Source: an uncultured Clostridium sp.
GTDB lineage: Bacteria > Bacillota > Clostridia > TANB77 > CAG-508
Direction: 5' to 3'
Length of the DNA stretch: 54,389 nt
NCBI GenBank assembly: GCA_964608075.1
Contig: CAZSMG010000003.1
Span: 1-54,389, forward strand
In this document: piece after piece, positions 10,403 through 51,619 of the stretch
Numbering within the stretch: position 1 is the stretch's first letter
Layout of the letters: each line of letters begins with the position of its first letter
The notes under the pieces: model-generated
Seen by the model: the letters and a program-made list of their open reading frames with translations, nothing else
What the model was told of the DNA's origin: nothing
Databases searched by the model: none
Program-made: the position numbers and the translations under genes

Positions 10403-10453
10403 TAAAAAGGTTGTTGCAAGATAAAAGTATAATTTGTGAAAATAGGAGGAAAA

Positions 10454-11962
10454 ATGAAAAGAACTATATTAGAAATTTTAGAGGAAACAGCTAATAAATT
10501 TCCAGATAAAGTAATTTATGAAGATATTAATCGTGAAATAACATACAAAGATTATATTAAAAATTGTAAAAAAATAGGAAGTGCATTAGCAGAGAAAATA
10601 CAAGACATAAATAAACCAATAGCAATATATATAGATCGTTCTGTTACATGCTTAGAAACAATGATGGGTGTAACATATAGTGGAAATTATTTTGCAGTTT
10701 TAGATATAAAATCACCTAAAGAGAGAAATAATTTAATAATAAATACATTACCAGATATTTCAATCATTGTAGAAAAGAAAAATATTGAAAAACTTAAAGA
10801 CTTAGACTTTAAAGGAAAAATATACATATATGAAGAATTAATAGAAAATAAAATTGACGAAGAAAGATTAACTCAAATAAGAAATAAAATAATTGATACA
10901 GATCCAATGTATGCACAATTTACATCAGGATCAACAGGTGTTCCTAAAGGAATAATAATATGCCATCGTTCTGTAATGGCATATGCTTACAATATAAAAG
11001 AAACATTTAAAATAGATGAACATACTAAATTTGGTAATGAACCACCATTTTATTTCAGTATGTCAACATTAGAAATATATACAACAATGATTAGTGGAGC
11101 AACAATGGTAATTATACCTAAAATGTATTTTTCATTTCCAATTAAATTGTTAGAATTTTTAAAAGAAAAGAAAATTAATACAATATATTGGGTACCATCT
11201 GTTCTTTGTATTGTTGCTAATATGAAAGCATTAGATGAAATGGAATTACCAGATTTAAAAAAAGTAATGTTTGCTGGAGAAGTAATGCCAGTAAAACAAT
11301 TAAATATATGGATAGAACACTTACCAAATGCAATGTTTGCAAACTTATGTGGGCCAACAGAAATAACAGATATATGTACATATTATATTGTTGATAGAAA
11401 ATTTGATAATTCAGAAAGTCTTCCAATAGGTAAAGCATGTTACAATTGTGATGTATTAATAATAAAAGAAGATGGAACTAAAGCAAAAGTAGGAGAAGAA
11501 GGAGAACTTTGCGTAAGAGGTTCATTCTTAGCATTAGGTTATTATAATAATCCAGAAAAAACAAGCCAAGCATTTATACAAAATCCATTAAATACTGCAT
11601 ATCCTGAAATAATATATAAAACAGGTGATATTGTAAAAGAAAATGAAAGAGGAGAAATAATTTATCTTTCTAGAAAAGATTTTCAAATAAAACATATGGG
11701 ATATAGAATAGAATTAGGAGAAATAGAAAATGCAATTAATAATATAGAAGGAATTATATCATGTGCATGTGTATATGATACTGAAAACAAAAAGATTGTT
11801 TTATATTATCAAGGGAAAGATCTTTCAGAAAAAGAATTGTTATCACAAGCAAAAACAAAATTGCCAAATTATATGTGTCCTAACGAAATACATAAATTGG
11901 ATCAAATGATTTATAATGCAAATGGAAAAATTGACAAAAATAAATTAAAATCAATAAATTAA
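10454..11962 (+). CDS. amino-acid adenylation enzyme, DltA-like (D-alanine--carrier protein ligase family)
   Basis: ATG at 10454 follows AGGAGGA. ANL-superfamily core motifs: FTSGSTGVPKG, GELCVRGSFLALGYY, YKTGD, FQIKHMGYRIELGEIE, NGKIDKNKL. About 500 aa, a stand-alone A domain like DltA. Confidence 0.75.
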   Translation: MKRTILEILEETANKFPDKVIYEDINREITYKDYIKNCKKIGSALAEKIQDINKPIAIYIDRSVTCLETMMGVTYSGNYFAVLDIKSPKERNNLIINTLPDISIIVEKKNIEKLKDLDFKGKIYIYEELIENKIDEERLTQIRNKIIDTDPMYAQFTSGSTGVPKGIIICHRSVMAYAYNIKETFKIDEHTKFGNEPPFYFSMSTLEIYTTMISGATMVIIPKMYFSFPIKLLEFLKEKKINTIYWVPSVLCIVANMKALDEMELPDLKKVMFAGEVMPVKQLNIWIEHLPNAMFANLCGPTEITDICTYYIVDRKFDNSESLPIGKACYNCDVLIIKEDGTKAKVGEEGELCVRGSFLALGYYNNPEKTSQAFIQNPLNTAYPEIIYKTGDIVKENERGEIIYLSRKDFQIKHMGYRIELGEIENAINNIEGIISCACVYDTENKKIVLYYQGKDLSEKELLSQAKTKLPNYMCPNEIHKLDQMIYNANGKIDKNKLKSIN

Positions 11963-11982
11963 AATATATGGGGGTAAAAATT

Positions 11983-12210
11983 ATGGAGAAATTATTAGAA
12001 ATATTAAAAGGAATTAAACCAGAAGTTGACTTTGAAGGTAATGAACATTTAATTGATAATGAAGAATTAGACTCTTTATCAATAGTAGAAGTCGTATCAG
12101 CAATTGATGATGAATTTGATGTAGAAATAGGTGTAACAGATATTATACCAGAAAACTTTAATTCAGTAGAAGCAATTTGGAATTTAATTCAAAAATTATT
12201 AGATGAATAA
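11983..12210 (+). CDS. acyl/D-alanyl carrier protein (DltC-like)
   Basis: 75 aa, acidic, with phosphopantetheine-attachment Ser in ELDSLSIVE. ATG at 11983 follows GGGGGT. Confidence 0.75.
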   Translation: MEKLLEILKGIKPEVDFEGNEHLIDNEELDSLSIVEVVSAIDDEFDVEIGVTDIIPENFNSVEAIWNLIQKLLDE

Positions 12211-12244
12211 TTAACTAAAAATAAATAGAAAAAAGGGGATAAAA

Positions 12245-13837
12245 ATGACAATAAATTCATTAAGCTTTATAGCTTTTGTAGCAATAGTTGCTATCATTTA
12301 TTTTATTTTCCCTAAAAAAGCTAGATGGGTAGTTTTATTAGTTGCAAACTATGTATTCTATTCAATTTGTAGCAATTGGCTAATTATTTATATGTTAGTA
12401 ACAACACTATCAATATATTTAGTTGCACTAAAAATGGGAAAAATAGATGTTAAAACAAAAGAAATAGTAAAAAAAGAAGAAAATAGAGAAAAGAAAAAAG
12501 AGATAAAAAATAAAGCAAAGACAAAGAAAAAATGGCTAGTTGCAATAGCTGTAATTATAAACTTTGGAATTTTAATTTATTTAAAATACTCTAATTTCTT
12601 ATCTGAAAATATAAATGGATTATTTAATATAGTAAAAATACCAATAGAAATACCATTTAGACAAATATTGCTTCCACTTGGAATATCTTATTATACATTA
12701 CAAGCAATTAGCTATGTTATAGATGTATATCGTGGAAAATATTTACCAGAAAAACATTTAGGTAAATTAGCATTATTTGTATCATTCTTTCCACAAATGG
12801 TCGAAGGACCAATTGGCAGATATGATGAATTAGGACACCAATTATATGAGCCACATAAATTTGAATATACAAGAGTAAAATTTGGAATTCAATTAATGCT
12901 GTGGGGATATTTTAAAAAGATGGTAATAGCAGATAGAGCAGGATTATTTGTTAATGAGGTATTTGCAAATTATAGTCAATATTTAGGAATACCAATATTC
13001 TTTGCAGCAGCTTTATATACTATTCAAATATATGCGGAATTTTCAGGATGTATTGATATAGTAAGAGGTGTAGCACAAATACTTGGTATAAATATGGCAG
13101 AAAACTTTAAAAGACCATTTTTCTCAAAATCAGTTCAAGAGTTTTGGAGAAGATGGCATATAACACTTGGAACATGGTTTAAAGACTACATATTTTATTC
13201 AGTATCTTTTTCAAAATTAACACAAAACATTACAACATTTGCTAAAAAAGTATTTAAGACAAGTTATATTGCTAAACTTATACCAGCAATATTTGCACTA
13301 TTTTTTGTATGGTTTGGAAATGGTATTTGGCATGGAGCAAGCTGGAAATACATTTGTTATGGAATGTATTATTATGTAATAATGGTATTAGGAATGGTAT
13401 TTGAACCATTAATGAATAAAATATTAAAATTATTAAAAATAAACAAAGAAACATTTAGCTATAGTTTTATGCAAATGGTAAGAACAACATTATTTGTAAT
13501 AATAGGAATGCTATTATTTAGATCTCCAGATTTAAATATTTTTGGACAAATGTTTACAGGAATATTTACAAGAGAACATTTAGAAATGTTATCAAATGGA
13601 AAAATATTTGAAATAGGATTAACGCAAGCTGATTTTGTTGTAATAGTAATTGGTGTAATAATAATGTTTGTAGTAGGTATTTTGCAAGAGCAAGGACATA
13701 AATTAAGAGAAGATATTTCAAAACAAAATCTGCCTTTTAGATGGATATTATATTATTCTATAATATTTGCAATTATTATATTTGGAATATATGGACCAGG
13801 CTATGTAGCAACAGACTTTATATATGGTCAATTTTAG
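12245..13837 (+). CDS. MBOAT family O-acyltransferase (DltB/AlgI-like)
   Basis: Polytopic membrane protein. MBOAT signature: FWRRWHITLGTWFKDYIFY with catalytic His, and WHGASW. Confidence 0.85.
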   Translation: MTINSLSFIAFVAIVAIIYFIFPKKARWVVLLVANYVFYSICSNWLIIYMLVTTLSIYLVALKMGKIDVKTKEIVKKEENREKKKEIKNKAKTKKKWLVAIAVIINFGILIYLKYSNFLSENINGLFNIVKIPIEIPFRQILLPLGISYYTLQAISYVIDVYRGKYLPEKHLGKLALFVSFFPQMVEGPIGRYDELGHQLYEPHKFEYTRVKFGIQLMLWGYFKKMVIADRAGLFVNEVFANYSQYLGIPIFFAAALYTIQIYAEFSGCIDIVRGVAQILGINMAENFKRPFFSKSVQEFWRRWHITLGTWFKDYIFYSVSFSKLTQNITTFAKKVFKTSYIAKLIPAIFALFFVWFGNGIWHGASWKYICYGMYYYVIMVLGMVFEPLMNKILKLLKINKETFSYSFMQMVRTTLFVIIGMLLFRSPDLNIFGQMFTGIFTREHLEMLSNGKIFEIGLTQADFVVIVIGVIIMFVVGILQEQGHKLREDISKQNLPFRWILYYSIIFAIIIFGIYGPGYVATDFIYGQF

Positions 13838-13848
13838 GGGAGTTAAAA

Positions 13849-15003
13849 ATGGAAAACGAAAATAAAGATACAATAAATAAACCAAATAATATAAATGGCG
13901 AAAGCATTGGGGGAGTACACACACACACACACACACACAAGCATATTTATCAAAGTTCCGGAAGAGTAATAAAATGTATAATATTTTTTATAATAGGATT
14001 ATTTATATTTGGGAAATTAACACATATATTTGTTCCAAAATGGGTATTTCAAACAGATCCTGCTACTCCAAGAATAAAAGGATTTTATTCAGAAGAATCT
14101 AATACGATGGATGTTTTAGTAATAGGATCTAGTGGAATAGGTAGAGGATATTCACCTGTTACTGTTTGGAATAAATATGGAATTACTAGTTATAACTTAG
14201 GAACTGCATATCAAACAATGCCTTGTGCTTATTATTTACTAAAAGAAGCTTTAAAATATCAAAATCCTAAAGTTGTTGTTTTAGATATGGATGCTACTTT
14301 TATTGATTATAAAACCCCAGAAGAAACATATAGAAAATTATTTGATAATATGAAACTTGATAATATTAAATTAGAAGCTATTAATGATAGAAATATAGGT
14401 ATAGATGATAAATTATCATATGTTTTTCCATTATTAAGATTTCACTCAAGATGGAATAAATTAGAAGAAAATGATTTTAAAAAGTCACTAAAATCAGAAT
14501 ATAATAAAGTTTCATATAAAGGTATGTCAATGAACATAGATGTTAAACCATATATAGATAATAAAAAGTATATGGAAGATAAAGGAGAGAAAGCTGAAAT
14601 TTTAGAAAAAAATCTTAATTATATTGTTAAGATAATTGATTTATGCGAAAAAAATAATATAAAATTACTAATGACAGAATTACCATCTCCAAATTCATGG
14701 TCATTAGCTAGAAGTAAATCTACTACAGAACTTGCAAATAAATATAAAATAGAATTTATAGATTTTAATTTGCCCCAAATGCAAGAAAAATTGAAACTTG
14801 ATTGGAAAAAACATACTCATGATAAAGGTTCTCATTTAAATGTAGCTGGTGCAGAAATAGTTTCTAAGTACATAGGTAAGGTTTTATCTGAAAAATATAA
14901 TTGTGAAAATCATAAAGAAGATAAAGAAATTTCAACTAAATGGAAAAAAGAAGTTAAAAGATATGAGCATAACAAAGTAAAATTAAAAAATGATTTAAAA
15001 TAA
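13849..15003 (+). CDS. membrane-anchored SGNH/DltD-like protein; carries an in-frame (AC)11 tract
   Basis: ATG at 13849 follows AGGGGAG; the track's longer ORF overlaps the MBOAT gene. N-terminal tail plus one TM helix. VLVIGSSG (GxS block) and DKGSHLNVAGAE (Asp/His block). Occupies the fourth position of the dlt-like operon. Confidence 0.6.
   Translation: MENENKDTINKPNNINGESIGGVHTHTHTHKHIYQSSGRVIKCIIFFIIGLFIFGKLTHIFVPKWVFQTDPATPRIKGFYSEESNTMDVLVIGSSGIGRGYSPVTVWNKYGITSYNLGTAYQTMPCAYYLLKEALKYQNPKVVVLDMDATFIDYKTPEETYRKLFDNMKLDNIKLEAINDRNIGIDDKLSYVFPLLRFHSRWNKLEENDFKKSLKSEYNKVSYKGMSMNIDVKPYIDNKKYMEDKGEKAEILEKNLNYIVKIIDLCEKNNIKLLMTELPSPNSWSLARSKSTTELANKYKIEFIDFNLPQMQEKLKLDWKKHTHDKGSHLNVAGAEIVSKYIGKVLSEKYNCENHKEDKEISTKWKKEVKRYEHNKVKLKNDLK
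13917..13938 (+). repeat. (AC)11 dinucleotide simple-sequence repeat inside coding sequence
   Basis: ACACACACACACACACACACAC encodes HTHTHTH at codons 23-30 of the DltD-like gene. Confidence 0.95.
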
Positions 15004-15045
15004 ATATATATATATATAATTATATATAATAAGGAGGAATTAATA

Positions 15046-17712
15046 TTGCTAAGTGATAATGAATATAAATATAAATTTAGTATTATAATGTCTATTTATA
15101 ATGTAGAAGAATATTTAAGAGAAGCTGTAGATAGTATAATAAATCAAAATATAGGTTTTGAAGAAAATGTACAATTAATATTGGTAAATGATGGAAGCCC
15201 AGATAATTCAGAAGAAATATGTTTAGAATATAAAGAAAAATATCCTAACAATGTTGTATATGTGAAAAAGGAAAATGGAGGATTATCTTCAGCAAAAAAT
15301 TATGGATTAAAATATAGAGAGGGTCAATATGTAAATTTCTTTGATCCAGATGATATATTACCTCCTAAAGTATTAAAAGAAGTTGAAAAATTTTTCAATA
15401 AGAATAATAATATCATATCTATGGTTGGTATTCCTTTAGTATTTTTTGAAGCTAGAACAGGACTACATCCTAAATATAAATATATGGGAAATAAAAATAG
15501 AATAATAAATTTAGATATAGAGCCATACAACTTTATTTTGTCATCTGCAAGTGTTTTTTATAAGACAGAAGTATTTAATGAAGTTCAATTTGATGAAGAA
15601 ATGGTAGGAGAAGAAGACACAAAATTAAATTTTAGAATTTATGAAAAAGATCATTGTTTTGGATATGTATGTGAAAAAGGTGTTAGATATAATTACAGAA
15701 AAAGAGTAGAAGGAGGATCTATTGTTGATAAGTCATCGACTAATAAGGCTAATTTTTATAGTGTAATTAGATTATTAGATGAAGTCATAGAAAATAATGA
15801 TGAAAATAATATTCCAAATTATAAGAAAGAATTAATTATTTATGAAACAAGATCTAGATTAAAATCTCTAGATGAGAAAATGTTTGAAAAAGAGGAATAT
15901 GAATATATAATAAGTAAATATAGAGAATATGTAAATTTAGTAGGAGATGCTTATTTAGCAACAAGTTCAAGATGGCTTCCAGATTTGCAAGGAAAATATT
16001 TTTATTTATGCAATTTCTTACAAAACAATCAAACATTTAAAATATCTGATAACGGATTTATAAGGTATAAAGATTTTAATTTATCACCTGTAAATCAAAT
16101 GAGACTATTAATTCAAAATATTAAATTTACTAAAAAAAATATAGTTATTGATTTGTTTTTTTGGGATTATAATATAGAAAATTTAGAGTTAATTGTTAAA
16201 ACATCAGATGGAAAAATAAGAGAGTTTTGCAATATAGATAGAGTTGATTCATTAGGATATAATATTAAATATGGAAATAATATAGTCTCTAATGTAATTC
16301 ATTATAAATTAAAATTAAAACATAAAAGACAAGCAATATCTTTTTATATAAGAAATAAAGACAATAATGTTGAATACAGAGTTGAAAATATCGATATCAA
16401 CAAATATAACAAATTAATTTTAAAAAATAAAGAAATTAGAATTTTTTATAATGATTATAATATTAAATTTAAAAATAATGAAATTACAATAAAAAAATTC
16501 AAATATCCTTCACTAAAGTATAGCTATCATACATATTTGTGTATAAAGAAAGAATATAAATATAAAGCATTTTATAGATTATTAAATAGAAGAAAAAAGA
16601 AATATATATTAATAAATGATAGACCAGAAAAAGCTGGAGATAATGGAGAAGCAATATTTAAATATATAAATAAAAATGAAAACGAATTAGCTAAAAACAC
16701 ATATTTTGTAATTTCAAAAAAGTGTAAGGATTATAAGAGATTAAAAAAATATGGAAACGTTGTAGCATTGAATAGTATAAAACACAAACTATTATTCTTA
16801 AATTGTAAATTAATAATGTCTTCACATATGCATATACCATTTTATAGTGCATTTGAAAACAAAGACTTAAAATTTTATAGAGATATGTTAAATTATAAAT
16901 TTGTTTGGTTACAACATGGTATAACTCAAAATGATATTAGTTCTGCTGCTAATAAATATGCAAAAGGTATAGATTATGTAGTATTAGCAACAAAAGCAGA
17001 AAAAGAAGAGTTTGGAAAAAGTAAATATTTTTATAATGAAAAAGATTTAATTTTATCAGGATTTTCAAGATATGATAATTTAAAAGATGATAGTAAAAAT
17101 ATTATAACTATAGCACCAACTTGGAGATCATATTTGTCTGGAGAAATAGAAAGTGATGGTTTCCATGCTATAAAAGATGGATTTGAAGAAAGCCAATATT
17201 ATTGTAAATATACAAATATTTTAAAAAATGAAGATTTATTAAATATTTTAAGAAACAAAGGAATAAAAATTAATTTTGTGTTACATCCTGGAATGGCTGG
17301 ATATGAAGAGATGTTTAGAAAATATGAAAATGACGTTGTTAATATAATAAGTGCTCATAAAGTTAATTATTCTAAAGTATTTGCAGAGTCAAATTTATTA
17401 ATAACAGATTATTCTAGTGTATTTTTTGATTTTGCATATTTAAAGAAACCAATTATATATTATCAATTTGATAAAGAACGATTTTTTACAGAACATTATA
17501 AAAGTGGATATTTTCATTATGATGAAGATGGCTTTGGAGATGTTATAGAAGAAGAAAACGAAATATTTGATAAAATATTATATTATATTAATAATGGATT
17601 TAAAATTGAAGATAAATATCTAAATAGAATAAATTCTACATTTATATATACAGATAGAAATAATTGCAGAAGATTAATAGAATATTTAAAAGATAAAAAT
17701 GTAATAAAATAG
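15046..17712 (+). CDS. bifunctional GT2 glycosyltransferase / CDP-glycerol glycerophosphotransferase (TagF-like) fusion
   Basis: TTG start 7 nt after AAGGAGGA. The N-terminal GT2 (FSIIMSIYNVEEY, VNDGSPD, FFDPDD) requires this start. C-terminal TagF motifs: WLQHGITQND, IAPTWRS, LITDYSSVFFDFAYLKKPIIYYQFD. Confidence 0.8.
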   Translation: MLSDNEYKYKFSIIMSIYNVEEYLREAVDSIINQNIGFEENVQLILVNDGSPDNSEEICLEYKEKYPNNVVYVKKENGGLSSAKNYGLKYREGQYVNFFDPDDILPPKVLKEVEKFFNKNNNIISMVGIPLVFFEARTGLHPKYKYMGNKNRIINLDIEPYNFILSSASVFYKTEVFNEVQFDEEMVGEEDTKLNFRIYEKDHCFGYVCEKGVRYNYRKRVEGGSIVDKSSTNKANFYSVIRLLDEVIENNDENNIPNYKKELIIYETRSRLKSLDEKMFEKEEYEYIISKYREYVNLVGDAYLATSSRWLPDLQGKYFYLCNFLQNNQTFKISDNGFIRYKDFNLSPVNQMRLLIQNIKFTKKNIVIDLFFWDYNIENLELIVKTSDGKIREFCNIDRVDSLGYNIKYGNNIVSNVIHYKLKLKHKRQAISFYIRNKDNNVEYRVENIDINKYNKLILKNKEIRIFYNDYNIKFKNNEITIKKFKYPSLKYSYHTYLCIKKEYKYKAFYRLLNRRKKKYILINDRPEKAGDNGEAIFKYINKNENELAKNTYFVISKKCKDYKRLKKYGNVVALNSIKHKLLFLNCKLIMSSHMHIPFYSAFENKDLKFYRDMLNYKFVWLQHGITQNDISSAANKYAKGIDYVVLATKAEKEEFGKSKYFYNEKDLILSGFSRYDNLKDDSKNIITIAPTWRSYLSGEIESDGFHAIKDGFEESQYYCKYTNILKNEDLLNILRNKGIKINFVLHPGMAGYEEMFRKYENDVVNIISAHKVNYSKVFAESNLLITDYSSVFFDFAYLKKPIIYYQFDKERFFTEHYKSGYFHYDEDGFGDVIEEENEIFDKILYYINNGFKIEDKYLNRINSTFIYTDRNNCRRLIEYLKDKNVIK

Positions 17713-20416: not shown

Positions 20417-21475
20417 TTGAAAAACGAAGAAAGACAATCTAATATTGAATTATTAAGAATTATATTAATAATGTTTATACTTGCTTTACATTATTTAAAT
20501 GGTACTTATGGAGGAGCATTAAATATAAAAAATATATCAAATGCAGAAAATAATTACTATATAGTAAGAATACTTGAAAGTTTATTCATTGTAGCAGTAA
20601 ATTGTTTTATACTTATAACAGGATATTTTTCATATAAGCAAACAAAAATAAAAGTAAAAAAGGTTATTGATTTATTAATAATTGTATGCTTTTATAATGT
20701 TTTGATATATATAATATCTATTATTACAAAAATTACAGCATTTAATAAAGAAACATTTCAAACTTTTTTAGCTACTTTTTATAAAGGTGGAATGTGGTTT
20801 ATTGATATATACATTATTTTATATTTGTTAATTCCATTTATAAATATTGTTATAAATAAACTTAGTAAGAAAAATATGAAAATCTTAATACTTATATTAT
20901 TTATTGCATTTTCTCTATATCCTACTTTTTTAGCAAATACAACAATAAATGATGCTGGATATGGTATTGTTAGTTTTATAATGTTGTACTTAATAGGCGC
21001 CTATATTAATAAATATAATGCTAACAATAAAAACATATTTATATATTTATTAATTTATATAATTATGGCTGGATGTACATATTATGAATCCATAAATGAT
21101 ATTTTAGTATCAGGACCATTTGATTATAATAGTATATTTAATATAATTGGTTCTGTAAGTTTATTTTTAGTATTTACAAAATTTAATTTTAAATCTAAAT
21201 TAATAAATTCAATATCTAAACACACATTATCTATTTATATAATACATGCAAATGATTTTATTATTAAATATGTGTATAGAAATTTATTAAAAACAAATTT
21301 ATTTTGGAAAAGTGACTTCTTAATATTACACTTATTAGTATCAATATGTATTATTTTTATTATATGCTTATTAATAGATATAATAAGAGAATTTGTTTTT
21401 AAAAGAACTATTAGTAAATTTATACAAAATAAAAAATTTTATAATTATGAAGTCGAATTATCAGATATTGATTAA
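20417..21475 (+). CDS. acyltransferase family 3 (AT3) integral membrane O-acyltransferase
   Basis: TTG start follows AAAGGGGA. About 10 TM helices, with N-terminal NIELLRIILIMFILALHY typical of the AT3 family. Confidence 0.7.
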   Translation: MKNEERQSNIELLRIILIMFILALHYLNGTYGGALNIKNISNAENNYYIVRILESLFIVAVNCFILITGYFSYKQTKIKVKKVIDLLIIVCFYNVLIYIISIITKITAFNKETFQTFLATFYKGGMWFIDIYIILYLLIPFINIVINKLSKKNMKILILILFIAFSLYPTFLANTTINDAGYGIVSFIMLYLIGAYINKYNANNKNIFIYLLIYIIMAGCTYYESINDILVSGPFDYNSIFNIIGSVSLFLVFTKFNFKSKLINSISKHTLSIYIIHANDFIIKYVYRNLLKTNLFWKSDFLILHLLVSICIIFIICLLIDIIREFVFKRTISKFIQNKKFYNYEVELSDID

Positions 21476-23548: not shown

Positions 23549-23577
23549 TTGAAATAATTAATAATAAATGATACAAT
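23549..23577 (+). promoter_or_regulatory. sigma-A promoter with extended -10 (TTGAAA-17-TGaTACAAT)
   Basis: Hexamers and spacing lie upstream of the CAP-domain gene. Confidence 0.55.
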
Positions 23578-23615
23578 GTTCACATATTTCGTATATAAAA
23601 AAGGGGGGAATTTAT

Positions 23616-25358
23616 ATGAAATTAAAAAAATTATTATTAAGTATTTTAATAGTTGCGGTATTTAGCATTATTACATCAATTACTTCAAATGCAGCAAATG
23701 AGACAATATCATTTAATGTAAATGTAGCTAATGATTATACATCAGCATATGAAGTATTAGAATTAGTAAATAAAGAAAGAAAAGCAGAAGGACTAAATGA
23801 GTTAAAAATGGACAAAGATTTATTAGATGCTGCAATGATTCGTGCAAGTGAATTAGTATTAAATTTTAGTCATACTAGACCAAATGGAACAAGTTGCTTT
23901 ACAGCAATAAATAAACCATTTAGTCATATGGGAGAAAATATAGCAGCAGGGCAATCAACATCAAAATATGTAATGCAATGTTGGATGGAATCACCAGGTC
24001 ATAAAGCAAATATTTTAACAGGAGATTTTACATCTATAGGTATTGGTTGTGTAAAATATGGAAATGTTCCATATTGGGTACAATTATTTGGAGAATCTAA
24101 TACAATAACTCCAGCTGTAAAACTTAATAATAGTAAAATAACAAGAAAAGTAGATATGTTATCTAGTGATGTACAATTATATTATAATTCTATGAAAGAG
24201 ATATTTAAAGGAGATTACAAAAACGGGTTTGAAACAACAATAGTAGTTCTTAATCCTGGATGGCAAGGAAGATGTACTACAATAGACCCAAATGATCTTA
24301 TTTTTGAAAGTTCAGATAAATCGGTATTTATTGTAGATAATAAAGGAATTTTAAAATTTAATTCAGCAGGAAAAGCATATTTAACAGCTACATTAAAGCA
24401 AAATAAAAACATAAGTGTAAAAAAAGAAATAAATGCAATAGTAAGAATGTATGAATTAAAATTAGATGATATAAAAGACCAAATATTTACAGGTAAAGAT
24501 ATTAGACCAGAAGTTACAATAAAAGATGGAGATTATACCTTAGTAAATAATAAAGACTATAAAATAACATATACAAATAATAAAAAATATGGAAAAGCAA
24601 CAGCTAAAATAGAGTTAATTGGAAGTTACTTGGGAACTGCTGAAAAAACATTTAACATAGTTCCTCCTAAAGTAACAAAACTTAAGGTTAAATCTACATC
24701 AACAAATACTATAAATTTAACTTGGAAAAAGACAAATGGAGTAACAGGTTATAAAGTATATTTATATGATTATTCAAAAGGTAAATATAAATACTATGGA
24801 AAAACAAATAAAACATCTATCAAAATTAAAAATTTAAAATCTGGTACAAAATACAAAGTAAGAGTAAGAGCATATAAAAGCGTAAATGGAACTCAGTATT
24901 TTGGAGAATATACTACAGCATTAAAAACAACAACCACTCCTAAAAAAGTGACAAATTTAAAAACTAAATCAAAATCTAAAAATAGTATAAAATTAAGTTG
25001 GAAGAAATCAAATGGATCAACAGGATATAAAGTATATGTGTATAACACTAAAACAAAAAAATATGAATACTATGGAAAAACAAGCAAAACATCTATTACA
25101 ATTAAAAAATTAAAATCAGGTAAATCATATAAAATAAAAGTTAGACCATATAAAACAATTGAAGGAAAGCAATATTTAGGAGAAAATTCTGGTGCTATAA
25201 AAGTATCTATTAAAAGCACAAGTAAAAAAGTATATATAACTCCTAAAGGAAAAAGATATCATTTAAATAAGAATTGTGGAGGAAAGAATTCATATTCTGT
25301 AAATATTAATACTGCAACGTCTTATGGACTAACTGCTTGCAAAAAATGCTCTAAATAA
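23616..25358 (+). CDS. secreted CAP/SCP (YkwD-like) domain protein with two fibronectin type III repeats and a C-terminal Cys motif
   Basis: ATG at 23616 follows AAGGGGGGA. Signal peptide is MKLKKLLLSILIVAVFSIITSITSNA. CAP motifs: SHTRPNG, GENIAAG, WMESPGHKANIL. Two ~90-aa FN3-like repeats (INLTWKK..GYKVYLY, IKLSWKK..GYKVYVY). Tail: KRYHLNKNCGG...LTACKKC. Confidence 0.75.
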   Translation: MKLKKLLLSILIVAVFSIITSITSNAANETISFNVNVANDYTSAYEVLELVNKERKAEGLNELKMDKDLLDAAMIRASELVLNFSHTRPNGTSCFTAINKPFSHMGENIAAGQSTSKYVMQCWMESPGHKANILTGDFTSIGIGCVKYGNVPYWVQLFGESNTITPAVKLNNSKITRKVDMLSSDVQLYYNSMKEIFKGDYKNGFETTIVVLNPGWQGRCTTIDPNDLIFESSDKSVFIVDNKGILKFNSAGKAYLTATLKQNKNISVKKEINAIVRMYELKLDDIKDQIFTGKDIRPEVTIKDGDYTLVNNKDYKITYTNNKKYGKATAKIELIGSYLGTAEKTFNIVPPKVTKLKVKSTSTNTINLTWKKTNGVTGYKVYLYDYSKGKYKYYGKTNKTSIKIKNLKSGTKYKVRVRAYKSVNGTQYFGEYTTALKTTTTPKKVTNLKTKSKSKNSIKLSWKKSNGSTGYKVYVYNTKTKKYEYYGKTSKTSITIKKLKSGKSYKIKVRPYKTIEGKQYLGENSGAIKVSIKSTSKKVYITPKGKRYHLNKNCGGKNSYSVNINTATSYGLTACKKCSK

Positions 25359-26202: not shown

Positions 26203-26242
26203 GTTTTTAAAATTGTATATATTTATAAGGAGGTACTTTTAT

Positions 26243-27112
26243 ATGAATAGTAATAACAAATTAGAAACAATATCAAATCTTTTTGAAGGAATAGAAATAA
26301 GAAGTATATGGAATACAGAAAAAGAAGAATATTTTTTTAGTGTAGTTGATGTTATTAGTGCATTGACAGATAGTAAAATTCCAAGGAATTATTGGAGTGA
26401 TTTAAAACGAAAATTAATAGAAGAGGGAAGTGAGTTGCACGAAAAAATCGTGCAACTGAAATTAAAATCAAATAAAGATGGAAAAAGATATATTACAGAT
26501 ACCTTAGATACGGAAGGAATCATAAGATTAATAGAGTCAGTTCCAAGTTCAAAGGCAGAACCTTTCAAATTATGGCTTGCATCTTTAGGTAAAGAAAGAA
26601 TAGATGAGGTCTTTGATCCAGAAATAGCAGTTAATAGAGCAATTGATTATTATAGAAGTAAAGGATATTCAGATAAATGGATTGAATCAAGACTTAAAGG
26701 AATATTGGATAGAAAAAGATTGACTGATATTTGGAAAGAAAATGGTATTAAAGAAAATTACGAATATGCAGTTTTAACAAATGATATATATAAAACTTGG
26801 TCTGGAATGAAAGCATCAGAATATAAAAATTATAAAAATATTAGGAAAGAGTCTTTAAGAGATAATATGACAGATGTAGAGGTAGCTCTTACAGATTTAG
26901 GAGAAATTGCAACTCGTGAACTTGCAAAAAAGCATAGACCACAAGGATTAAAAGCAAATAGAAAGATTGCAAAGGAAGGAGGAGAAGTTGCTAAAACGGC
27001 TCGTGATGATTTAGAACAAAAACTTGGAGAAACAATTATTAGTAAAGAAAATAGATTGAATTATAAATATTTAGAAGATAATAAAAAACTAGAAGATAAA
27101 AATAGTAATTAA
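26243..27112 (+). CDS. Bro-N domain protein with DinD-like C-terminal region (phage antirepressor-like)
   Basis: ATG at 26243 follows AAGGAGGT. N-terminal Bro-N-like FEGIEIRSIWNTEKEEYFFSVVDVISALTDS. C-terminus SLRDNMTDVEVALTDLGEIATRE parallels the DinD-like fragment at 2-328. Confidence 0.7.
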   Translation: MNSNNKLETISNLFEGIEIRSIWNTEKEEYFFSVVDVISALTDSKIPRNYWSDLKRKLIEEGSELHEKIVQLKLKSNKDGKRYITDTLDTEGIIRLIESVPSSKAEPFKLWLASLGKERIDEVFDPEIAVNRAIDYYRSKGYSDKWIESRLKGILDRKRLTDIWKENGIKENYEYAVLTNDIYKTWSGMKASEYKNYKNIRKESLRDNMTDVEVALTDLGEIATRELAKKHRPQGLKANRKIAKEGGEVAKTARDDLEQKLGETIISKENRLNYKYLEDNKKLEDKNSN

Positions 27113-34812: not shown

Positions 34813-37101
34813 ATGAGTATAAAAGGAATAGTATATGAAATAATTAGAAAAATTACAGGAAAAAAAGATAAGAATCAAATGCAACTTGAAGAACCAGTAG
34901 AAAACAATGAAATTGATAATAGTTTAATAAATGAAGATAAAATAGAATCACAAGTAGATGAAAATAAAATGGAACCACAAGTAAATGAAATTGAAAATAA
35001 TGAAGAAGAAATAATAGAAGAAGATACGCTTGTTTCTAGATATTTATCTATAATAAGAACAAGGATTTATTTAGATAAAATTGATGATGATTTTATTGAT
35101 GAAATAAATGAAAGTGAAATTTTATCACAATACCAAAAAACTATTATATTATTGGCATTATGTGAAAAAAACAATATGTTGAAACGTGCTAAACAAATTA
35201 AAGATAATTCAAATTTTAAGAATGAAAATGAAAGAAAAGAAATAAATAAAATTATAGAGAGAATTAAATCAAATAAAATTAAAAATTTTGATTTAAAAAG
35301 ATATGATAGTGTATTAGGATGGGAATATAATGAAGAATTATATGAAAGTTATTTAAAACAAGAAGAAGAAGAAGAAGAAAAAAGTTTGGAAAATACTATA
35401 AAAGTAAGTAAAGAAATAAAACAATTAATAAATGATGAAAGATATGAAGAAGCAGAAAAAAAAGGGAAAAAGTATAAAGATAATATAATTATACAAACAC
35501 AGATGTTATTAATAGCAATAAAGCAAAATGATTTCGAAAAAATAAAACTAATTGCTAAAACTTATAAAGATTTTGAAGCAATTCAAATACAAATAGGTAA
35601 TTATATAAAAGAATTAATAAGTCTTGAAGAATTTGAAAAGGCTATAGAATTATGTGAATTCTTTTTAGAAAATCCAATAATACAATCACAGAGGTTAACA
35701 ATAGCAATAAAACAAAATGATTTTGGAAAAATACAACAAATTGCTAAAACTTATAAAGACGTTAAAGCAATTCAGAGACAGATAAGTATACTTATAAATG
35801 AATTAATAGATAATAGAAAATATAAAACTGCAACACAATTAGGGGAGATTTTTAAAGATGATTCTATAATACAATCACAAATGCTAACAATAGCGATAAT
35901 ACAAAAAGATTATGAAAAAATAGAACAAATTGCTATAATTTATAAAGATGTTAAAGCAATTCAAAGACAAATAAGTGTACTCATAAATGAATTAATAGAG
36001 AGTAGCGAATATAAAACTGCAATAAGGTTAGGAAAAATTTTTAAAGACGATGTTATAATGCAATCACAAATGCTATTAATAGCAATAAAGACAGAGGATA
36101 ATAATGAGATAAAGCAGATTGCAAAAAAATATAAAGATGATGAAGTAATAAGGACACAACTAGAGAGATATATTGAAATACAATTAATAAAAAAACAATA
36201 TGCAATAGTATTAGAAATACAAGATATTTTAAATAATAAAGAAAAAACTCAAGAACAATTACAACCAGAAAATAGTGAAAGTATTGAAGATGTTGAAAAT
36301 AGTGAAAATATTGAAGACAATGAAAAAAATCATTATCTTGCTAAATTAAAAACAAGAATTTATTTAGGTAAAATTGATGATGAATTAATTAATGAAATAA
36401 ATGAAAGTCAAATTTTATCAGAATATGAAAGAACTATTATTTTATTTGCAATATATGAAAAGAAAAACATGCCTGAACGTGTAAAACAAATACAAGCTAA
36501 AGCAAATTTTGAAGATGAAAGTCAAAAAAGAGAAGTAAGAAAAATAATAGAAAGAATGAAATCTAAAAAGAAAAGAATATTTGATTTTGGAATATATGAT
36601 AAATTATTATACTGGCAATTTGATGAGGAACTACTTGGAAAATACAAAAATAATGAAGACGATAAACAAGCAGTAAAAGAAAGTAGCGAAATATCAAAAC
36701 CAGTAGACAAAGAGGGAAAAATAGAAAATACAGAAGAAATTATATTAGAGCAAGAAGGTAATAAAGATGGGTTAGAGATATCAACTGAAAATGCAGATAC
36801 TAATAATTTAAAAATTGAAGATAATACAGATAATATAGTAAAAAAACAAAATTCCAGTGTAAAAGCTATAGTTTTAGAATATTTAATTGAAAAAAGAGTT
36901 GATATATATGTAAAAACATTTACAGATAATATTAACAAAAGAAAAAAGGCAATAAATCAATTAGATATTATACAAGAAATGATTGAAAGAGTAGAAAATT
37001 GTAAGAATGATGATGAATATATAGATATGCTATATAATAGAATTCAAAAATTAAAAAATAGTGAAAATAATAACAAAGAAGTAGAAGATAGAGATGAATA
37101 A
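34813..37101 (+). CDS. large cytoplasmic helical-repeat (TPR-like) protein of unknown function with duplicated ~100-aa module
   Basis: No signal peptide or TM helix, highly charged. Four tandem 63-64-aa repeats (IIQSQ.LTIAI.Q.D..KI.QIA..YKDVKAIQRQIS.LINELI). The ~100-aa module YL..(I/L)(R/K)TRIYL.KIDD..I.EINES.ILS.Y..TIIL...EK.NM..R.KQI... occurs twice here and once in the next gene. Confidence 0.6.
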   Translation: MSIKGIVYEIIRKITGKKDKNQMQLEEPVENNEIDNSLINEDKIESQVDENKMEPQVNEIENNEEEIIEEDTLVSRYLSIIRTRIYLDKIDDDFIDEINESEILSQYQKTIILLALCEKNNMLKRAKQIKDNSNFKNENERKEINKIIERIKSNKIKNFDLKRYDSVLGWEYNEELYESYLKQEEEEEEKSLENTIKVSKEIKQLINDERYEEAEKKGKKYKDNIIIQTQMLLIAIKQNDFEKIKLIAKTYKDFEAIQIQIGNYIKELISLEEFEKAIELCEFFLENPIIQSQRLTIAIKQNDFGKIQQIAKTYKDVKAIQRQISILINELIDNRKYKTATQLGEIFKDDSIIQSQMLTIAIIQKDYEKIEQIAIIYKDVKAIQRQISVLINELIESSEYKTAIRLGKIFKDDVIMQSQMLLIAIKTEDNNEIKQIAKKYKDDEVIRTQLERYIEIQLIKKQYAIVLEIQDILNNKEKTQEQLQPENSESIEDVENSENIEDNEKNHYLAKLKTRIYLGKIDDELINEINESQILSEYERTIILFAIYEKKNMPERVKQIQAKANFEDESQKREVRKIIERMKSKKKRIFDFGIYDKLLYWQFDEELLGKYKNNEDDKQAVKESSEISKPVDKEGKIENTEEIILEQEGNKDGLEISTENADTNNLKIEDNTDNIVKKQNSSVKAIVLEYLIEKRVDIYVKTFTDNINKRKKAINQLDIIQEMIERVENCKNDDEYIDMLYNRIQKLKNSENNNKEVEDRDE
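35485..36243 (+). repeat. four tandem intragenic repeats with a 189-192 bp period
   Basis: Units start at 35485, 35677, 35866 and 36055, each opening with ATAAT(A/T/G)(C/A)AATCACA-like sequence. The two central units are the most similar. Confidence 0.85.
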
Positions 37102-48276: not shown

Positions 48277-49881
48277 ATGAAAATTAATAAAATAATTAAA
48301 CTGATTTTAATAACTTTAATAAGTATATGTATTATGCAATTTTTGTCTAATAATGAAGTACAAGCTGCATCAAACCCAAAATTAAAAGTTTCATATAGCT
48401 ATAATAAAAAAGATGATGTAGTTACAGTAAAAGTAAAGTCAAATATAAAATTTAAAAAAACAAAACCATCTTGGACTTTAAGTAAAAATAAAAAAACATA
48501 TTCTAAAAAGTTTTATAAAAATGAGACATATTCTACTAAATTTACTATGGCAAATGGAAAGAGTAAAACTATTAAAATTAAAGTAAAACAAATAAAAGGA
48601 CCTAAAATTACTGTAAGTTATAAATATGATAAAAAGACAAATAAAGTAAAAGTTACATTAAAGTCAAATAAAGAATTAAAAGACACAAAACCTTCATGGA
48701 CTTTAAGTAAAAACAAAAAAACATATACAAAAACTTTTAAAGATAATCAAACATATACAACACCAATCTATGATAAATATGGAAATAAGAAAAATGTAAA
48801 AATTAAAGTAAAACAAGTAGATAAAAAAGGACCAAAAGCACACATAACATATGACTATAATAGTAGTAATAATACTGTTTTAGTTACAATAAAAGCAGAT
48901 GAAGAATTAAAGAAAAATAGTCTTAATAGTAAATGGGTATTAAGTAAAAATAAAAAAGTATTTACAAGAACTTTTTACGTTAATACAAATTTTGATTTTA
49001 CATTAAAAGATAAATTTGGTAATAAAACTAAAGGAAAAATTATTATAGATTTAATAGATGACATACCTCCAAAAGTTACTACTACATATAATTATAGTAG
49101 CGATAAAAATAGTGCTATAGTAACACTTACAGCAAATGAAGAATTATCAAGTAGTTTAGTAAACGATGGATGGCAATTAAGTGGTGACAAAAGAATATAT
49201 ACAAAGCAATTTAAGAGAAATGGTACATATTCTGTTATAGTAAATGATAAATATAATAATGGAGCAAAAGTAAGTATAAAAATATCAGGTTTGATTTATA
49301 AAGGAATAGATGTATCAAGTCATCAAAGCAGAATAAATTGGGTAGATGTTAAACAAGATGGAATCGATTTTGCAATATTACGATTAGGCTGGATAGGAAA
49401 CAGAAATAATCATACAATAGATACATTTTTCAATGAAAATTATGAAGCATGTAAAAGATTAGGAATACCAGTAGGTATATATGTATATAATTATTGCGAA
49501 AGCGAAGAAGCTGTTGCAAGCGGTGCGAAATGGGTTCTTGATCAATTAAAAGGAAAAAAATTAACATATCCAGTTTATATTGATATGGAAGATAGTCAAA
49601 TAGCTGGATTAGATAAAGAAAAATTGACTAATATATCAAAAACTTTTTGTGAAGAAATTAAAAAAGGTGGATATAGTAAAGTTGGAGTATATGCAAATAA
49701 GAATTGGTTAATAAATAAATTAGATGCTAATCAATTATCTAGTTATAATATATGGCTTGCTCATTATACATCAAAAACAGATTATACTGGGAAATATCAA
49801 ATATGGCAATATACAAGTTCTGGAAGTGTAAAAGGAATTATTGGAAGAGTAGATATGAATTATTGCTATAAAAATTATTAA
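48277..49881 (+). CDS. secreted GH25 muramidase with four N-terminal ~85-aa repeats
   Basis: Signal peptide ends NNEVQA. Repeats centre on TKPSWTLSKNKKTY(S/T)K.F. C-terminal GH25 motifs: GIDVSSHQSRINWVDVKQDGIDFAILRLG, YIDMED, IWQYTSSG. Confidence 0.85.
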   Translation: MKINKIIKLILITLISICIMQFLSNNEVQAASNPKLKVSYSYNKKDDVVTVKVKSNIKFKKTKPSWTLSKNKKTYSKKFYKNETYSTKFTMANGKSKTIKIKVKQIKGPKITVSYKYDKKTNKVKVTLKSNKELKDTKPSWTLSKNKKTYTKTFKDNQTYTTPIYDKYGNKKNVKIKVKQVDKKGPKAHITYDYNSSNNTVLVTIKADEELKKNSLNSKWVLSKNKKVFTRTFYVNTNFDFTLKDKFGNKTKGKIIIDLIDDIPPKVTTTYNYSSDKNSAIVTLTANEELSSSLVNDGWQLSGDKRIYTKQFKRNGTYSVIVNDKYNNGAKVSIKISGLIYKGIDVSSHQSRINWVDVKQDGIDFAILRLGWIGNRNNHTIDTFFNENYEACKRLGIPVGIYVYNYCESEEAVASGAKWVLDQLKGKKLTYPVYIDMEDSQIAGLDKEKLTNISKTFCEEIKKGGYSKVGVYANKNWLINKLDANQLSSYNIWLAHYTSKTDYTGKYQIWQYTSSGSVKGIIGRVDMNYCYKNY

Positions 49882-49889
49882 ATAATATT

Positions 49890-49922
49890 AAGGTTTAAGT
49901 TTTCTTAAACCTTTTCTTTTTA
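49890..49922 (+). terminator. rho-independent terminator
   Basis: Perfect 10-bp stem AAGGTTTAAG / CTTAAACCTT with a T-rich tail. Confidence 0.75.
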
Positions 49923-49947
49923 TTGTAAATACTGGAAAAACTATCCT

Positions 49948-49977
49948 TTGACTGCTATGAAAGTAGCATGTTACAAT
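49948..49977 (+). promoter_or_regulatory. sigma-A promoter with extended -10 (TTGACT-18-TGtTACAAT)
   Basis: Hexamers and spacing lie upstream of the second GH25 gene. Confidence 0.55.
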
Positions 49978-49993
49978 CAAATAGGGTGATATT

Positions 49994-51619
49994 ATGTTAC
50001 TTTCTAAAAAAATTATATATATAATCTCTGTAATAGTACTTATTATTACTATGCAAATTATGTTTTCAGGAAAAGTAAATGCTAGTCAAAGCTCTGATAT
50101 TACTTTAACATATAAATATAATGATAATAATACTGTAACAGCAATAGCTAAATCAAGCGTTGGGTTTAAAGAAACAAAGCCAACATGGACTTTAAGTAAA
50201 GACAAACTTACATATACAAAATTATATTATACTAATGAAAGTTATTATACAACATTTGTATTAAAAAATGGAGTAACAAGAAATGTTAAATTAAATATAA
50301 CAAATATAGATGATATAGGACCTAATATTAATATGATATATGAATATGATGAAAAAGAAGATATAGTAACAGCTATTATGAAATCAAATGAAAAGATGGC
50401 AAATACAAAACCAACATGGACTTTAAGTAAAGATAAGCTAACATATACAAAAAAATATTATACAAATCAATCATATTATACATATGTAGAAGATGAGTTA
50501 GGCAATAAAACAAAAGTTATGCTTAATATAAATAAAATTAAGGGCCCTCAAATTTCAATGTCATATCAGTATAATGAAAATAATAATACTGTAACTGCGA
50601 TTATGACATCTAATAAGGCTTTAGAAAAAACAAAACCAACATGGACTTTAAGTAAAGATAAACTAACATATACAAAAACATTTGATAAAAATCAAATATA
50701 TACTACTCCTGTTGTAGATACATATGGAAATAGTGTAGATGTAAAGGTGAGTATAATAAAAGTAGATGTTACAGGACCTAAAATAACTATAACTTATGAT
50801 TATAATGAAGAAAAAAGTTCGGTTATAGTTTCTCTTAAATCAAATGAAAAAATGGCAAATACAAAACCAACATGGACTTTGAGTAAAGATAAGCTAACAT
50901 ATACTAAGAAATATGATTCCAATCAAAGCTATATAACTTCTGTAAAAGATATATATGGAAATAGCACAAACGTTAAATTAAATATTACTGGAATAAAGGA
51001 TAGAGTATTAAATGGAATAGATGTATCTTTGTATCAAGGAACAATTGATTGGACAAAAGTAAAATATTCTGGCATAGATTTTGCAATGATAAGAGCAGGA
51101 TATAGAGGATATGGGGAAAATGGAACATTAGTTGAAGATTCTATGTTTTCTAAAAATATATTAGGAGCTAAATCTAATGCAATAAAAGTTGGAATATATT
51201 TTTATACTCAAGCTATAACAGAAAAAGAAGCAAAAGAAGAAGCAAATTTTGTATTAAGCTTAATAAAGAAATATGGAGTAAAACCTGAGTATCCAATTGC
51301 TATTGATACAGAACTAAGTCCAGTAGGAACAGGAAGAGCAGATAATTTACCTAAAGAACTAAGAACTAAAATTGTAAAAGCATTTTGCAAAACAATACAA
51401 GATGCAGGATATACACCTATGGTATATGCAAATAAGTATTGGTTAAATGATAATTTAAATATTTCAGATTTAAGTAATATTGATACTTGGCTTGCACATT
51501 ATACAAATAAAACAGATTACAAATATCCATATACTATGTGGCAGTATAGTGATAAAGGAAATATAAATGGAATAACAGGAAACGTAGACTTAAATTATGG
51601 ATATAAAAAATATAATTAA
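49994..51619 (+). CDS. secreted GH25 muramidase with four N-terminal ~90-aa repeats (paralog)
   Basis: Signal peptide ends GKVNA. Four repeats around TKPTWTLSKDKLTYTK(K/L/T)(Y/F). GH25 motifs: GIDVSLYQGTIDWTKVKYSGIDFAMIRAG, AIDTE, MWQYSDKG. Confidence 0.85.
   Translation: MLLSKKIIYIISVIVLIITMQIMFSGKVNASQSSDITLTYKYNDNNTVTAIAKSSVGFKETKPTWTLSKDKLTYTKLYYTNESYYTTFVLKNGVTRNVKLNITNIDDIGPNINMIYEYDEKEDIVTAIMKSNEKMANTKPTWTLSKDKLTYTKKYYTNQSYYTYVEDELGNKTKVMLNINKIKGPQISMSYQYNENNNTVTAIMTSNKALEKTKPTWTLSKDKLTYTKTFDKNQIYTTPVVDTYGNSVDVKVSIIKVDVTGPKITITYDYNEEKSSVIVSLKSNEKMANTKPTWTLSKDKLTYTKKYDSNQSYITSVKDIYGNSTNVKLNITGIKDRVLNGIDVSLYQGTIDWTKVKYSGIDFAMIRAGYRGYGENGTLVEDSMFSKNILGAKSNAIKVGIYFYTQAITEKEAKEEANFVLSLIKKYGVKPEYPIAIDTELSPVGTGRADNLPKELRTKIVKAFCKTIQDAGYTPMVYANKYWLNDNLNISDLSNIDTWLAHYTNKTDYKYPYTMWQYSDKGNINGITGNVDLNYGYKKYN

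Follow-up and report, generated by a model that had tools for sequence, protein, structure and literature searches.

We analyzed a 54,389-nt stretch of DNA from an uncultured Clostridium sp. (contig CAZSMG010000003.1 of assembly GCA_964608075.1), referred to here as the window, in which a gene on the forward strand (13849–15003) carries a perfect AC dinucleotide repeat near its 5′ end. The gene encodes a protein of 384 amino acids (aa) and stands last in a dlt-like module of four genes. The repeat, (AC)11, was located at 13917–13938 (+ strand) and is followed by an A at 13939 and another at 13940, the segment 13910–13944 reading GGGGAGT(AC)11AAGCAT. Tandem Repeats Finder (TRF) called it at 13917–13939 with a period of 2, 11.5 copies, and 100% matches, and both the sequence and TRF reproduced the position given in the initial annotation of this DNA. 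In the frame of the main start codon (ATG1, described below), the tract begins with the third base of codon 23 (GTA) and extends to the end of codon 30. Its earlier assignment to codons 23–30 was correct in extent, whereas the encoded peptide HTHTHTH itself corresponds to codons 24–30 (H24–H30), codon 23 sharing only its last base with the tract.

The base composition of the window is 23.3% G+C, with C accounting for 8.5%, and its other dinucleotide runs, apart from AT/TA, reach 3 units at most. The expected count of (AC)11 in the window under a first-order Markov model was approximately 8e-11, and a 16-mer match occurred in none of 100 dinucleotide-preserving shuffles. The tract is therefore real and far beyond chance, as had been proposed when it was described as highly non-random in AT-rich DNA. 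Being a perfect tandem repeat that is long for this genome and lies inside a coding region, it was classified as a simple sequence repeat.

The 384-aa protein was divided, on the basis of its open reading frame (ORF), protein alignment, AlphaFold2, and Foldseek, into a tail (residues 1–33), a transmembrane (TM) helix (approximately residues 34–61), and an SGNH-fold domain. The AlphaFold2 model, built with 38 homologues, had a mean predicted local distance difference test (pLDDT) score of 90; residues 1–4 and 15–26 scored below 50, and the first three 10-residue blocks (residues 1–30) scored about 45. A long helix at 34–61 is followed by an alpha/beta domain. The model predicts that the N-terminal cytoplasmic tail carrying the repeat is disordered, and it agrees with the earlier placement of the tract in a tail preceding the only TM helix, since the modeled helix begins beyond the tract. 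Candidate catalytic residues are S95, D325, and H329, of which D325 and H329 are invariant and S95, in a G-S-S block, is conserved except in distant members, where it is replaced by Cys.

Foldseek comparison with the PDB retrieved SGNH/GDSL hydrolases, and DltD (6pfx, E 4e-5; 3bma, E 4.6e-4) ranked among the top structural matches and gave the longest alignments, at TM-scores of only about 0.35–0.37. A profile search of PDB sequences yielded only marginal GDSL matches (E ≥ 0.075) and no DltD. A weak match to Lipase_GDSL_2 was the commonest match among the homologues (33 of 38). The layout typical of DltD, a single N-terminal TM anchor and an SGNH-like extracytoplasmic fold with Ser/Asp/His, is predicted to be present. 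It is reasonable to regard the protein as DltD-like by context and fold and not as a Pfam DltD member. The label DltD-like in the initial annotation accordingly holds for gene context and fold but not for family membership, no model match to the DltD family PF04914 being listed in the Pfam and NCBIfam scans.

A mechanically derived ORF at 13741–15003 overlaps the upstream gene, which encodes an MBOAT acyltransferase, and frame analysis and the position of homologous starts placed the real start of the tract-bearing gene at ATG1 (13849–13851, + strand). The Shine-Dalgarno (SD)-like sequence AGGGGAG (13836–13842, + strand), 6 nt 5′ of ATG1, overlaps the TAG stop codon of the MBOAT gene (13835–13837) and is kept in all tract-bearing loci. 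Homologues without the tract have an SD and an ATG at the equivalent place, and the distance from the MBOAT stop to ATG1 is the same as that to the starts of two tract-less homologues (L008 and L016). A second ATG, overlooked in the initial annotation, lies in another frame at 13895–13897 (ATG2, + strand) and is present in all four lineages described below. In the window, the ATG2 ORF (MAKALGEYTHTHTHTSIFIKVPEE; MAKALGEY-THTH...) ends at the TAA at 13967–13969. Gene callers used ATG2 as the start for two homologues, P0002 (locus L001) and P0121 (loci L010 and L011). No purine-rich SD-like sequence was found in the 20 nt 5′ of ATG2 in any lineage, and ATG2 is for this reason probably a weak start.

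Frame outcomes were simulated on the window sequence for repeat numbers (n) of 4–15. With n = 2 mod 3, the full protein of 380–386 aa is read from ATG1, the ancestral main start. With n = 1 mod 3, translation from ATG2 yields the full protein (364–370 aa), in which a leader of 8 residues precedes the His-Thr run, and the out-of-frame product of ATG1, 79–85 aa long, ends at a third-frame stop (14100–14102, + strand). Repeat numbers with n = 0 mod 3 leave both starts out of frame, and ATG1 gives a stub of 36–42 aa, ending ...IFIKVPEE, at a tandem TAA TAA in the second frame (13967–13972, + strand), a stop also seen in called ORFs. A start in the third frame was rejected, as no ATG, GTG, or TTG separates that frame's last stop from the tract. 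Past the tract, M87 (14107–14109, + strand) is the first ATG in frame; it lies beyond the TM helix, and a functional restart at this site was rejected, as the product would be anchorless and presumably inactive. These outcomes refine the initial annotation. The window, with n = 11, is in the ON state as stated there, ATG1 being in frame with the enzyme. The statement that a change of one unit truncates the protein holds for the gain of one unit, which leads to the stub, but not for the loss of one (or the gain of two), which brings ATG2 into frame. The statement that no in-frame restart precedes the GSS block was wrong, since M87 (14107) precedes G93-S94-S95 by seven codons.

Natural alleles were collected from metagenome assemblies, and the collections searched provided about a dozen contigs in four lineages, designated A to D. 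The literature, searched for the accessions of the samples and assemblies, yielded no paper. A protein search found only two close homologues with the His-Thr run: P0002 (80% identity), which begins MMKALQEYIYTHTHKH, and P0003 (72% identity), which begins MENENKDTINKPNNINGENTAGVHTHTHRH. A further protein of 263 aa, P0063, is identical to the C-terminal part of P0003. In lineage A, the window has (AC)11 with ATG1 in frame, and a contig from Logan (L012, SRR15970572) has (AC)12A followed by the contig end, that is, at least 12 units. This contig is 100% identical to window positions 10745–13939 over 3195 nt and yet has at least 12 units instead of 11. In lineage B, four contigs (L002 from SRR27999951, L015 from SRR27999960, and L003 and L004 from ENA) have (AC)8 with ATG1 in frame. 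Two others have (AC)9 (L005, SRR27999959) and (AC)6 (L006, SRR27999963) with no start in frame, and stub ORFs of 38 and 36 aa, respectively, were called in them. Lineage C (L010, SRR21460684; L011, SRR33727307) has (AC)4 with ATG2 in frame, and P0121 (MAKTLREYTHRH...) was called from ATG2 although ATG1 and its SD are intact. Lineage D (L001, GCA_037194325.1) has TATATA(AC)7 with ATG2 in frame, ATG1 with its SD being out of frame.

The differences within lineage B were confined to the tract. Comparisons of L002 with L005 (4697 nt), L002 with L006 (2042 nt), and L005 with L006 (4139 nt) showed 0 mismatches and a single gap, which was the tract; L015 equals L002 over 1337 nt, and L002 is separated from the two ENA contigs by 2 mismatches over about 2.1 kb. 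The alleles of 8, 9, and 6 units in this strain come from four different runs, the 8-unit allele recurs in two independent ENA assemblies, and (AC)4 was found in two independent runs. On otherwise identical backgrounds, the repeat thus differs by +1 and −2 units, and all three classes of n mod 3 occur in nature, including on such backgrounds. The repeat number is polymorphic with unchanged flanks, and the changes are not confined to whole codons, as in contingency loci. The comparisons proposed in the initial annotation gave consistent answers: tract length differs across strains and metagenomes (4, 6, 7, 8, 9, 11, and at least 12 units), the differences are not restricted to multiples of three units (8, 9, and 6 units on contigs that show no mismatch beyond the tract), and no homologue encodes the His-Thr run by non-repetitive codons, the run existing only with the AC tract.

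The recurrence of the same allele in independent assemblies (8 units in L002, L003, L004, and L015; 4 units in L010 and L011) argues against an explanation in which errors of sequencing or assembly at a low-complexity site produced the length differences. Dinucleotide repeats are indeed prone to PCR stutter, and all data are short-read metagenome assemblies, one of which (L012) ends in the tract. However, tracts of 8–22 nt are far shorter than reads and shorter than assembler k-mers, and consensus differences of +1 and −2 units are not a typical error pattern; we consider an artefactual origin very improbable. The end of L012 (3173–3197) falls inside the tract after (AC)12A, 25 nt into the repeat, a length below the k-mer size of such assemblies. 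This end could represent a branch between length alleles in the SRR15970572 sample; it was rejected as proof of within-sample heterogeneity, as contig ends have several possible causes.

The same set of alleles bears on whether selection acts on the protein repeat, with the His-Thr run serving as a functional peptide such as a metal-binding tail. Alternating His residues can bind metals, and the in-frame alleles differ in the run that they encode (HTHTH in the 8-unit alleles and HTHTHTH in the window). Against this, the variation is not limited to multiples of three units, the run is always a pure AC repeat and never uses mixed codons, and it is absent from all homologues outside a narrow clade and lies in a region predicted to be disordered. 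This explanation appears the least probable of those considered, with hardly any weight left to it.

The origin of the tract was examined by protein alignment and in the DNA of three tract-less loci (L007, L008, and L016). Homologues with ≤ 67% identity start MKK(I/A)SKIIKC..., straight before the TM helix, and in the DNA of the three loci the MBOAT stop is followed by an SD and an ATG leading into the helix, with no extension and no repeat. The nearest tract-less relative is L016, whose DltB is 82% identical. An alignment-based locus search (12 sequences) found only three metagenome-assembled genomes labeled 'uncultured Clostridia bacterium', at 30–58% identity, none with the tract. As ATG1 sits where the L008 start sits and distant homologues have no extension, the tract-carrying tail is, by alignment, an insertion of about 32 codons (13852–13947, + strand) behind the ancestral start, confined to a narrow clade.

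After the tract, the ratio of non-synonymous to synonymous substitution rates (dN/dS) between lineages was 0.17–0.29, at a synonymous divergence (dS) of 0.15–0.9, and on the branch of the (AC)4 lineage (L010) there were 8 synonymous and 3 non-synonymous changes. These values indicate that the enzyme is under purifying selection in every lineage, including those in the ATG2 phase, and hence that the gene is not simply decaying. An uninterrupted tract persists across lineages over the same range of dS. These observations are difficult to combine with a neutral, unstable microsatellite whose frameshifts are ordinary loss-of-function changes in a dispensable accessory gene. Such an origin would fit with the frequent loss of accessory cell-wall decoration genes and with the mosaic nature of the cluster, which differs between strains. 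However, a perfect tract has been kept in four lineages under purifying selection on the enzyme, the OFF alleles are otherwise intact (0 mismatches over kilobases), and the lengths differ in both directions (6, 8, and 9 units). Moreover, the repeat occupies a tolerant, disordered tail near the start, 3′ of two starts in two frames, as in proven contingency loci, and no comparable repeat occurs elsewhere in the 54 kb. Neutral instability is therefore regarded as improbable.

Given the repeat, its frames, the pair of starts, and the occurrence of natural alleles of every frame class, we consider it highly probable that the tract is a slippage-driven, three-state translational phase-variation switch for the last gene of the dlt-like module. 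Strand slippage during replication would add or remove AC units, and n mod 3 would select which upstream start, if any, reads into the enzyme. Full expression would result when ATG1, with its strong SD, is in frame (n = 2 mod 3; the window, with n = 11, is in this state). When only the SD-less ATG2 is in frame (n = 1 mod 3), a shorter-tailed enzyme would be made at a low level. A CA-rich tract could enhance translation from this start, such an effect being reported for E. coli. When no start is in frame (n = 0 mod 3), ATG1 would give the stub and the enzyme would be OFF. In-frame length changes should not harm the enzyme, because the repeat would lie in a disordered tail inserted after the ancestral start. 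We infer the slippage mechanism, its reversibility, a high switching rate, and the use of ATG2 from these features. Polarity is a further possible effect: roughly 1 kb of mRNA left untranslated when the enzyme is OFF could lower the expression of the downstream GT2/TagF-type gene. Loss of glycopolymer esterification would be the expected consequence of the OFF state, and surface charge and the interaction with antimicrobial peptides and phages might be affected.

The strongest competing explanation is a binary switch in which ATG2 is unused, only n = 2 mod 3 yields enzyme, and two thirds of the lengths are null. The lack of an SD-like sequence before ATG2 agrees with it, as does the expectation that initiation at ATG2 is impeded by ribosomes from ATG1, which read across it in another frame for 79–85 codons in alleles with n = 1 mod 3. 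Chance could also account for an ATG within an open stretch of 8–10 codons. However, ATG2 has been kept in four lineages though the overlapping codons of the ATG1 frame differ (AAT GGC vs AAT GAT). Two lineages are in the ATG2 phase with full-length, intact ORFs, and one of them has only (AC)4, which should seldom slip back. The low dN/dS (about 0.2) and the excess of synonymous changes on the L010 branch (8 against 3) likewise favor an ATG2 that is in use. We therefore judge the binary form to be unlikely, though a good deal less so than neutral instability.

Several observations weigh against a three-state switch and against the function assigned to it. The middle state may be null, ATG2 having no SD and being crossed by ribosomes from ATG1. 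No family was assigned to the tract-bearing protein at E ≤ 0.01 in the Pfam and NCBIfam scans, and an exact-pattern scan with the junction GGTCAATTTTAGGGGAGTTAAAAATGGAAAAC found no match in genome contigs or Joint Genome Institute (JGI) metagenome contigs. All the contigs are metagenome assemblies, which give only the majority or assembled allele, and the alleles represent only about a dozen contigs from four lineages in the collections searched.

The three genes preceding the tract-bearing gene were characterized by family scans, and AMP-binding, PP-binding, and MBOAT genes lie directly 5′ of it in all related loci. The first encodes a stand-alone, DltA-like amino-acid adenylation enzyme (10436–11962, + strand; probable start ATG 10454) that scored 283.6 bits against TIGR01734 (cutoff 559.85). 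Its best PDB match was the LgrA A-domain (303 bits), and DltA scored 191 bits. The second encodes a DltC-like carrier protein with a phosphopantetheine attachment site (11968–12210, + strand). The third, directly 5′ of the tract-bearing gene, encodes the DltB-like MBOAT acyltransferase (12245–13837, + strand), which scored 147 bits against TIGR04091 (cutoff 375) and whose only PDB matches were DltB (6bug and 8jem, E 5e-27). The score for NF003464 was 23.1 against a cutoff of 68 (NCBIfam), and none of the NCBIfam equivalog cutoffs for DltA, DltB, and DltC was reached. As the adenylation enzyme is nearer to the A-domain of a nonribosomal peptide synthetase (LgrA) and falls below the DltA cutoffs, the activated substrate and the esterified group may be other than D-alanine.

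The rest of the 54-kb window is, judging from its gene content, a teichoic-acid-type cell-wall glycopolymer island. It encodes five proteins with a TagF-type glycerophosphotransferase domain, many GT2 glycosyltransferases, PMT_2 and YfhO glycosyltransferases, two ABC-2 exporters, an LCP ligase, and an Acyl_transf_3 protein, together with a cytidylyltransferase-like protein that we take to be TagD-like. The segment 17739–20386 holds a second MBOAT gene (472 aa) and, after it, a gene for 407 aa whose matches to AlgX (SGNH-like) and DHHW are sub-threshold; the Acyl_transf_3 gene (20417–21475) comes next. This group would form an O-acylation system of its own within the island. Genes for a CAP-domain plus fibronectin-III protein, a Bro-N protein, and two tandem paralogues of a GH25 muramidase are interspersed among the glycopolymer genes (23568–25358, 26213–27112, and 48277–51619). 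Bro-N is a domain family common in phages. Every family-assigned ORF is on the + strand, GC skew is positive in every 2-kb window, and the cumulative skew rises monotonically. Given this monotonic rise and the shared strand of these ORFs, the window is consistent with a long leading-strand segment.

Comparison with the related loci revealed mosaic identity over window positions 11294–14957. The MBOAT gene shares 94–100% identity with L005 and 90–99% with L010; for the adenylation gene the values are about 100% with L010 and 72–93% with L005, and the 3′ two thirds of the tract-bearing gene is 67–84% identical to L005/L010 and 79–90% to L001. Such a pattern is suggestive of recombination or allelic replacement, the breakpoint of which would lie close to the tract-bearing gene. 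Gene order 3′ of the tract-bearing gene also varies. A GT2/TagF-type fusion follows directly in the window (15046–17712) and in L001, and in strain B (L002, 1716–7269; L005, 3813–6792) genes for Acyl_transf_3, an IspD-like cytidylyltransferase, and an ADH-like protein come first. The differing gene order looks like serotype-type variation of the polymer.

Other repeats were also observed in these loci. An (AT)7 run at 15004–15017 (TRF 15000–15028) lies immediately 3′ of the tract-bearing gene's stop codon, within the 42 nt that separate this gene from the next; the corresponding spacer in L001 is only 14 nt. This run could be a second length-variable site that acts on the ribosome-binding region of the downstream gene. 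In related strains, (GT)5 was found in the ADH-like gene of strain B (L005, 6120–6129; L002, 4023–4032) and (GA)5 in the PMT_2 gene of L001 (2132–2141), and such runs in neighboring genes are unusual for this base composition. An ORF at 34813–37101, encoding 762 aa with weak TPR matches, contains a 189-bp unit repeated 3.3 times with 80% identity (35475–36089) and 27-bp repeats at 34928–34999 and 36268–36326.

Teichoic-acid-type esterification in Firmicutes sets surface charge, sensitivity to cationic peptides, and phage adsorption, and slippage contingency loci are textbook knowledge in a few host-adapted Gram-negative pathogens and in mycoplasmas. Public metagenome assemblies alone show the same strain with different repeat lengths, in and out of frame, across samples, in a gene that would control the esterification of a teichoic-acid-type polymer, and metagenomic time series offer a means of tracking the locus. 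Because OFF alleles appear in gene calls as truncated or re-started genes (e.g., P0063, P0002, and P0121), bet-hedging of the Gram-positive cell wall through repeats may be escaping notice. In a limited search of open-access text, no account of phase variation driven by repeats came up, either for a dlt-type gene or within Clostridia; the cases located for Clostridia and other gut Firmicutes operate through DNA inversion. We tentatively suggest, as a plausible reading held with less than even confidence, that this is the first repeat-slippage contingency locus in Clostridia and the first phase-variable dlt-type esterification, a three-level switch created by a recent insertion that would hedge exposure to phages and peptides in the gut against the cost of the modification.

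The module resembles dltXABCD in combining an adenylation enzyme, a carrier, an MBOAT protein, and a single-pass SGNH-like protein (compare DltD, 6pfx and 3bma). It differs in its gene order, A-C-B-D, and in that no protein reaches an NCBIfam equivalog cutoff and none matches PF04914. As far as we are aware, regulation of dlt operons is transcriptional, and phase variation through a repeat is not known for them. The closest counterpart of the proposed switch is licA of Haemophilus influenzae, in which the number of (CAAT) repeats sets the in-frame start, with initiation codons in two of the three frames and the third OFF (PMC2212159). Both loci have a tandem repeat in the 5′ end of a surface-glycan decoration gene and starts in two frames, and licA likewise switches a charged decoration, phosphorylcholine on lipopolysaccharide. 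The repeat is a dinucleotide here and a tetranucleotide in licA, the hosts are uncultured Clostridia and a Gram-negative pathogen, respectively, and the gene products are a membrane-anchored, extracytoplasmic SGNH-fold enzyme and a cytoplasmic kinase, respectively. Switching and its phenotype have been demonstrated experimentally for licA and are predicted for the present locus.

Two further systems share the dinucleotide repeat. In oipA of Helicobacter pylori, a CT repeat lies in the 5′ coding region, and ON and OFF frameshift alleles differ among isolates; the parts of that source that we consulted describe no second start in another frame (PMC10564699). As in oipA, and likewise in sabA and hopZ, the repeat lies in the N-terminal targeting segment of an envelope protein, but it is AC and not CT, and it belongs to a glycopolymer-modifying enzyme and not to an outer-membrane adhesin. 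In M.MmyCI of Mycoplasma mycoides subsp. capri, (AG)12 in the coding region causes premature termination (PMC3498834). That case is similar in having a dinucleotide repeat of about 12 units in a coding region of a very AT-rich bacterium of the Firmicutes/Tenericutes lineage; it differs in that its target is a Type III DNA methyltransferase and its repeat is not at the extreme 5′ end.

Within the class Clostridia, phase variation in Clostridioides difficile (cwpV, flgB, cmrRST, and pdcB/pdcC) proceeds by DNA inversion (PMC11868660, PMC8890394), and a 2025 review names Clostridioides only for invertible promoters (PMC11868660). The stochastic switching of envelope or signaling functions is common to these systems and the locus described here, whereas repeat slippage takes the place of site-specific inversion by a recombinase. 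Enrichment of repeats at the N-terminus has been discussed as a signature of phase variation (PMC3315296), and the (AC)n tract reported here lies in such a position. The proposed switch is of a known type, found in an unusual taxon and pathway.

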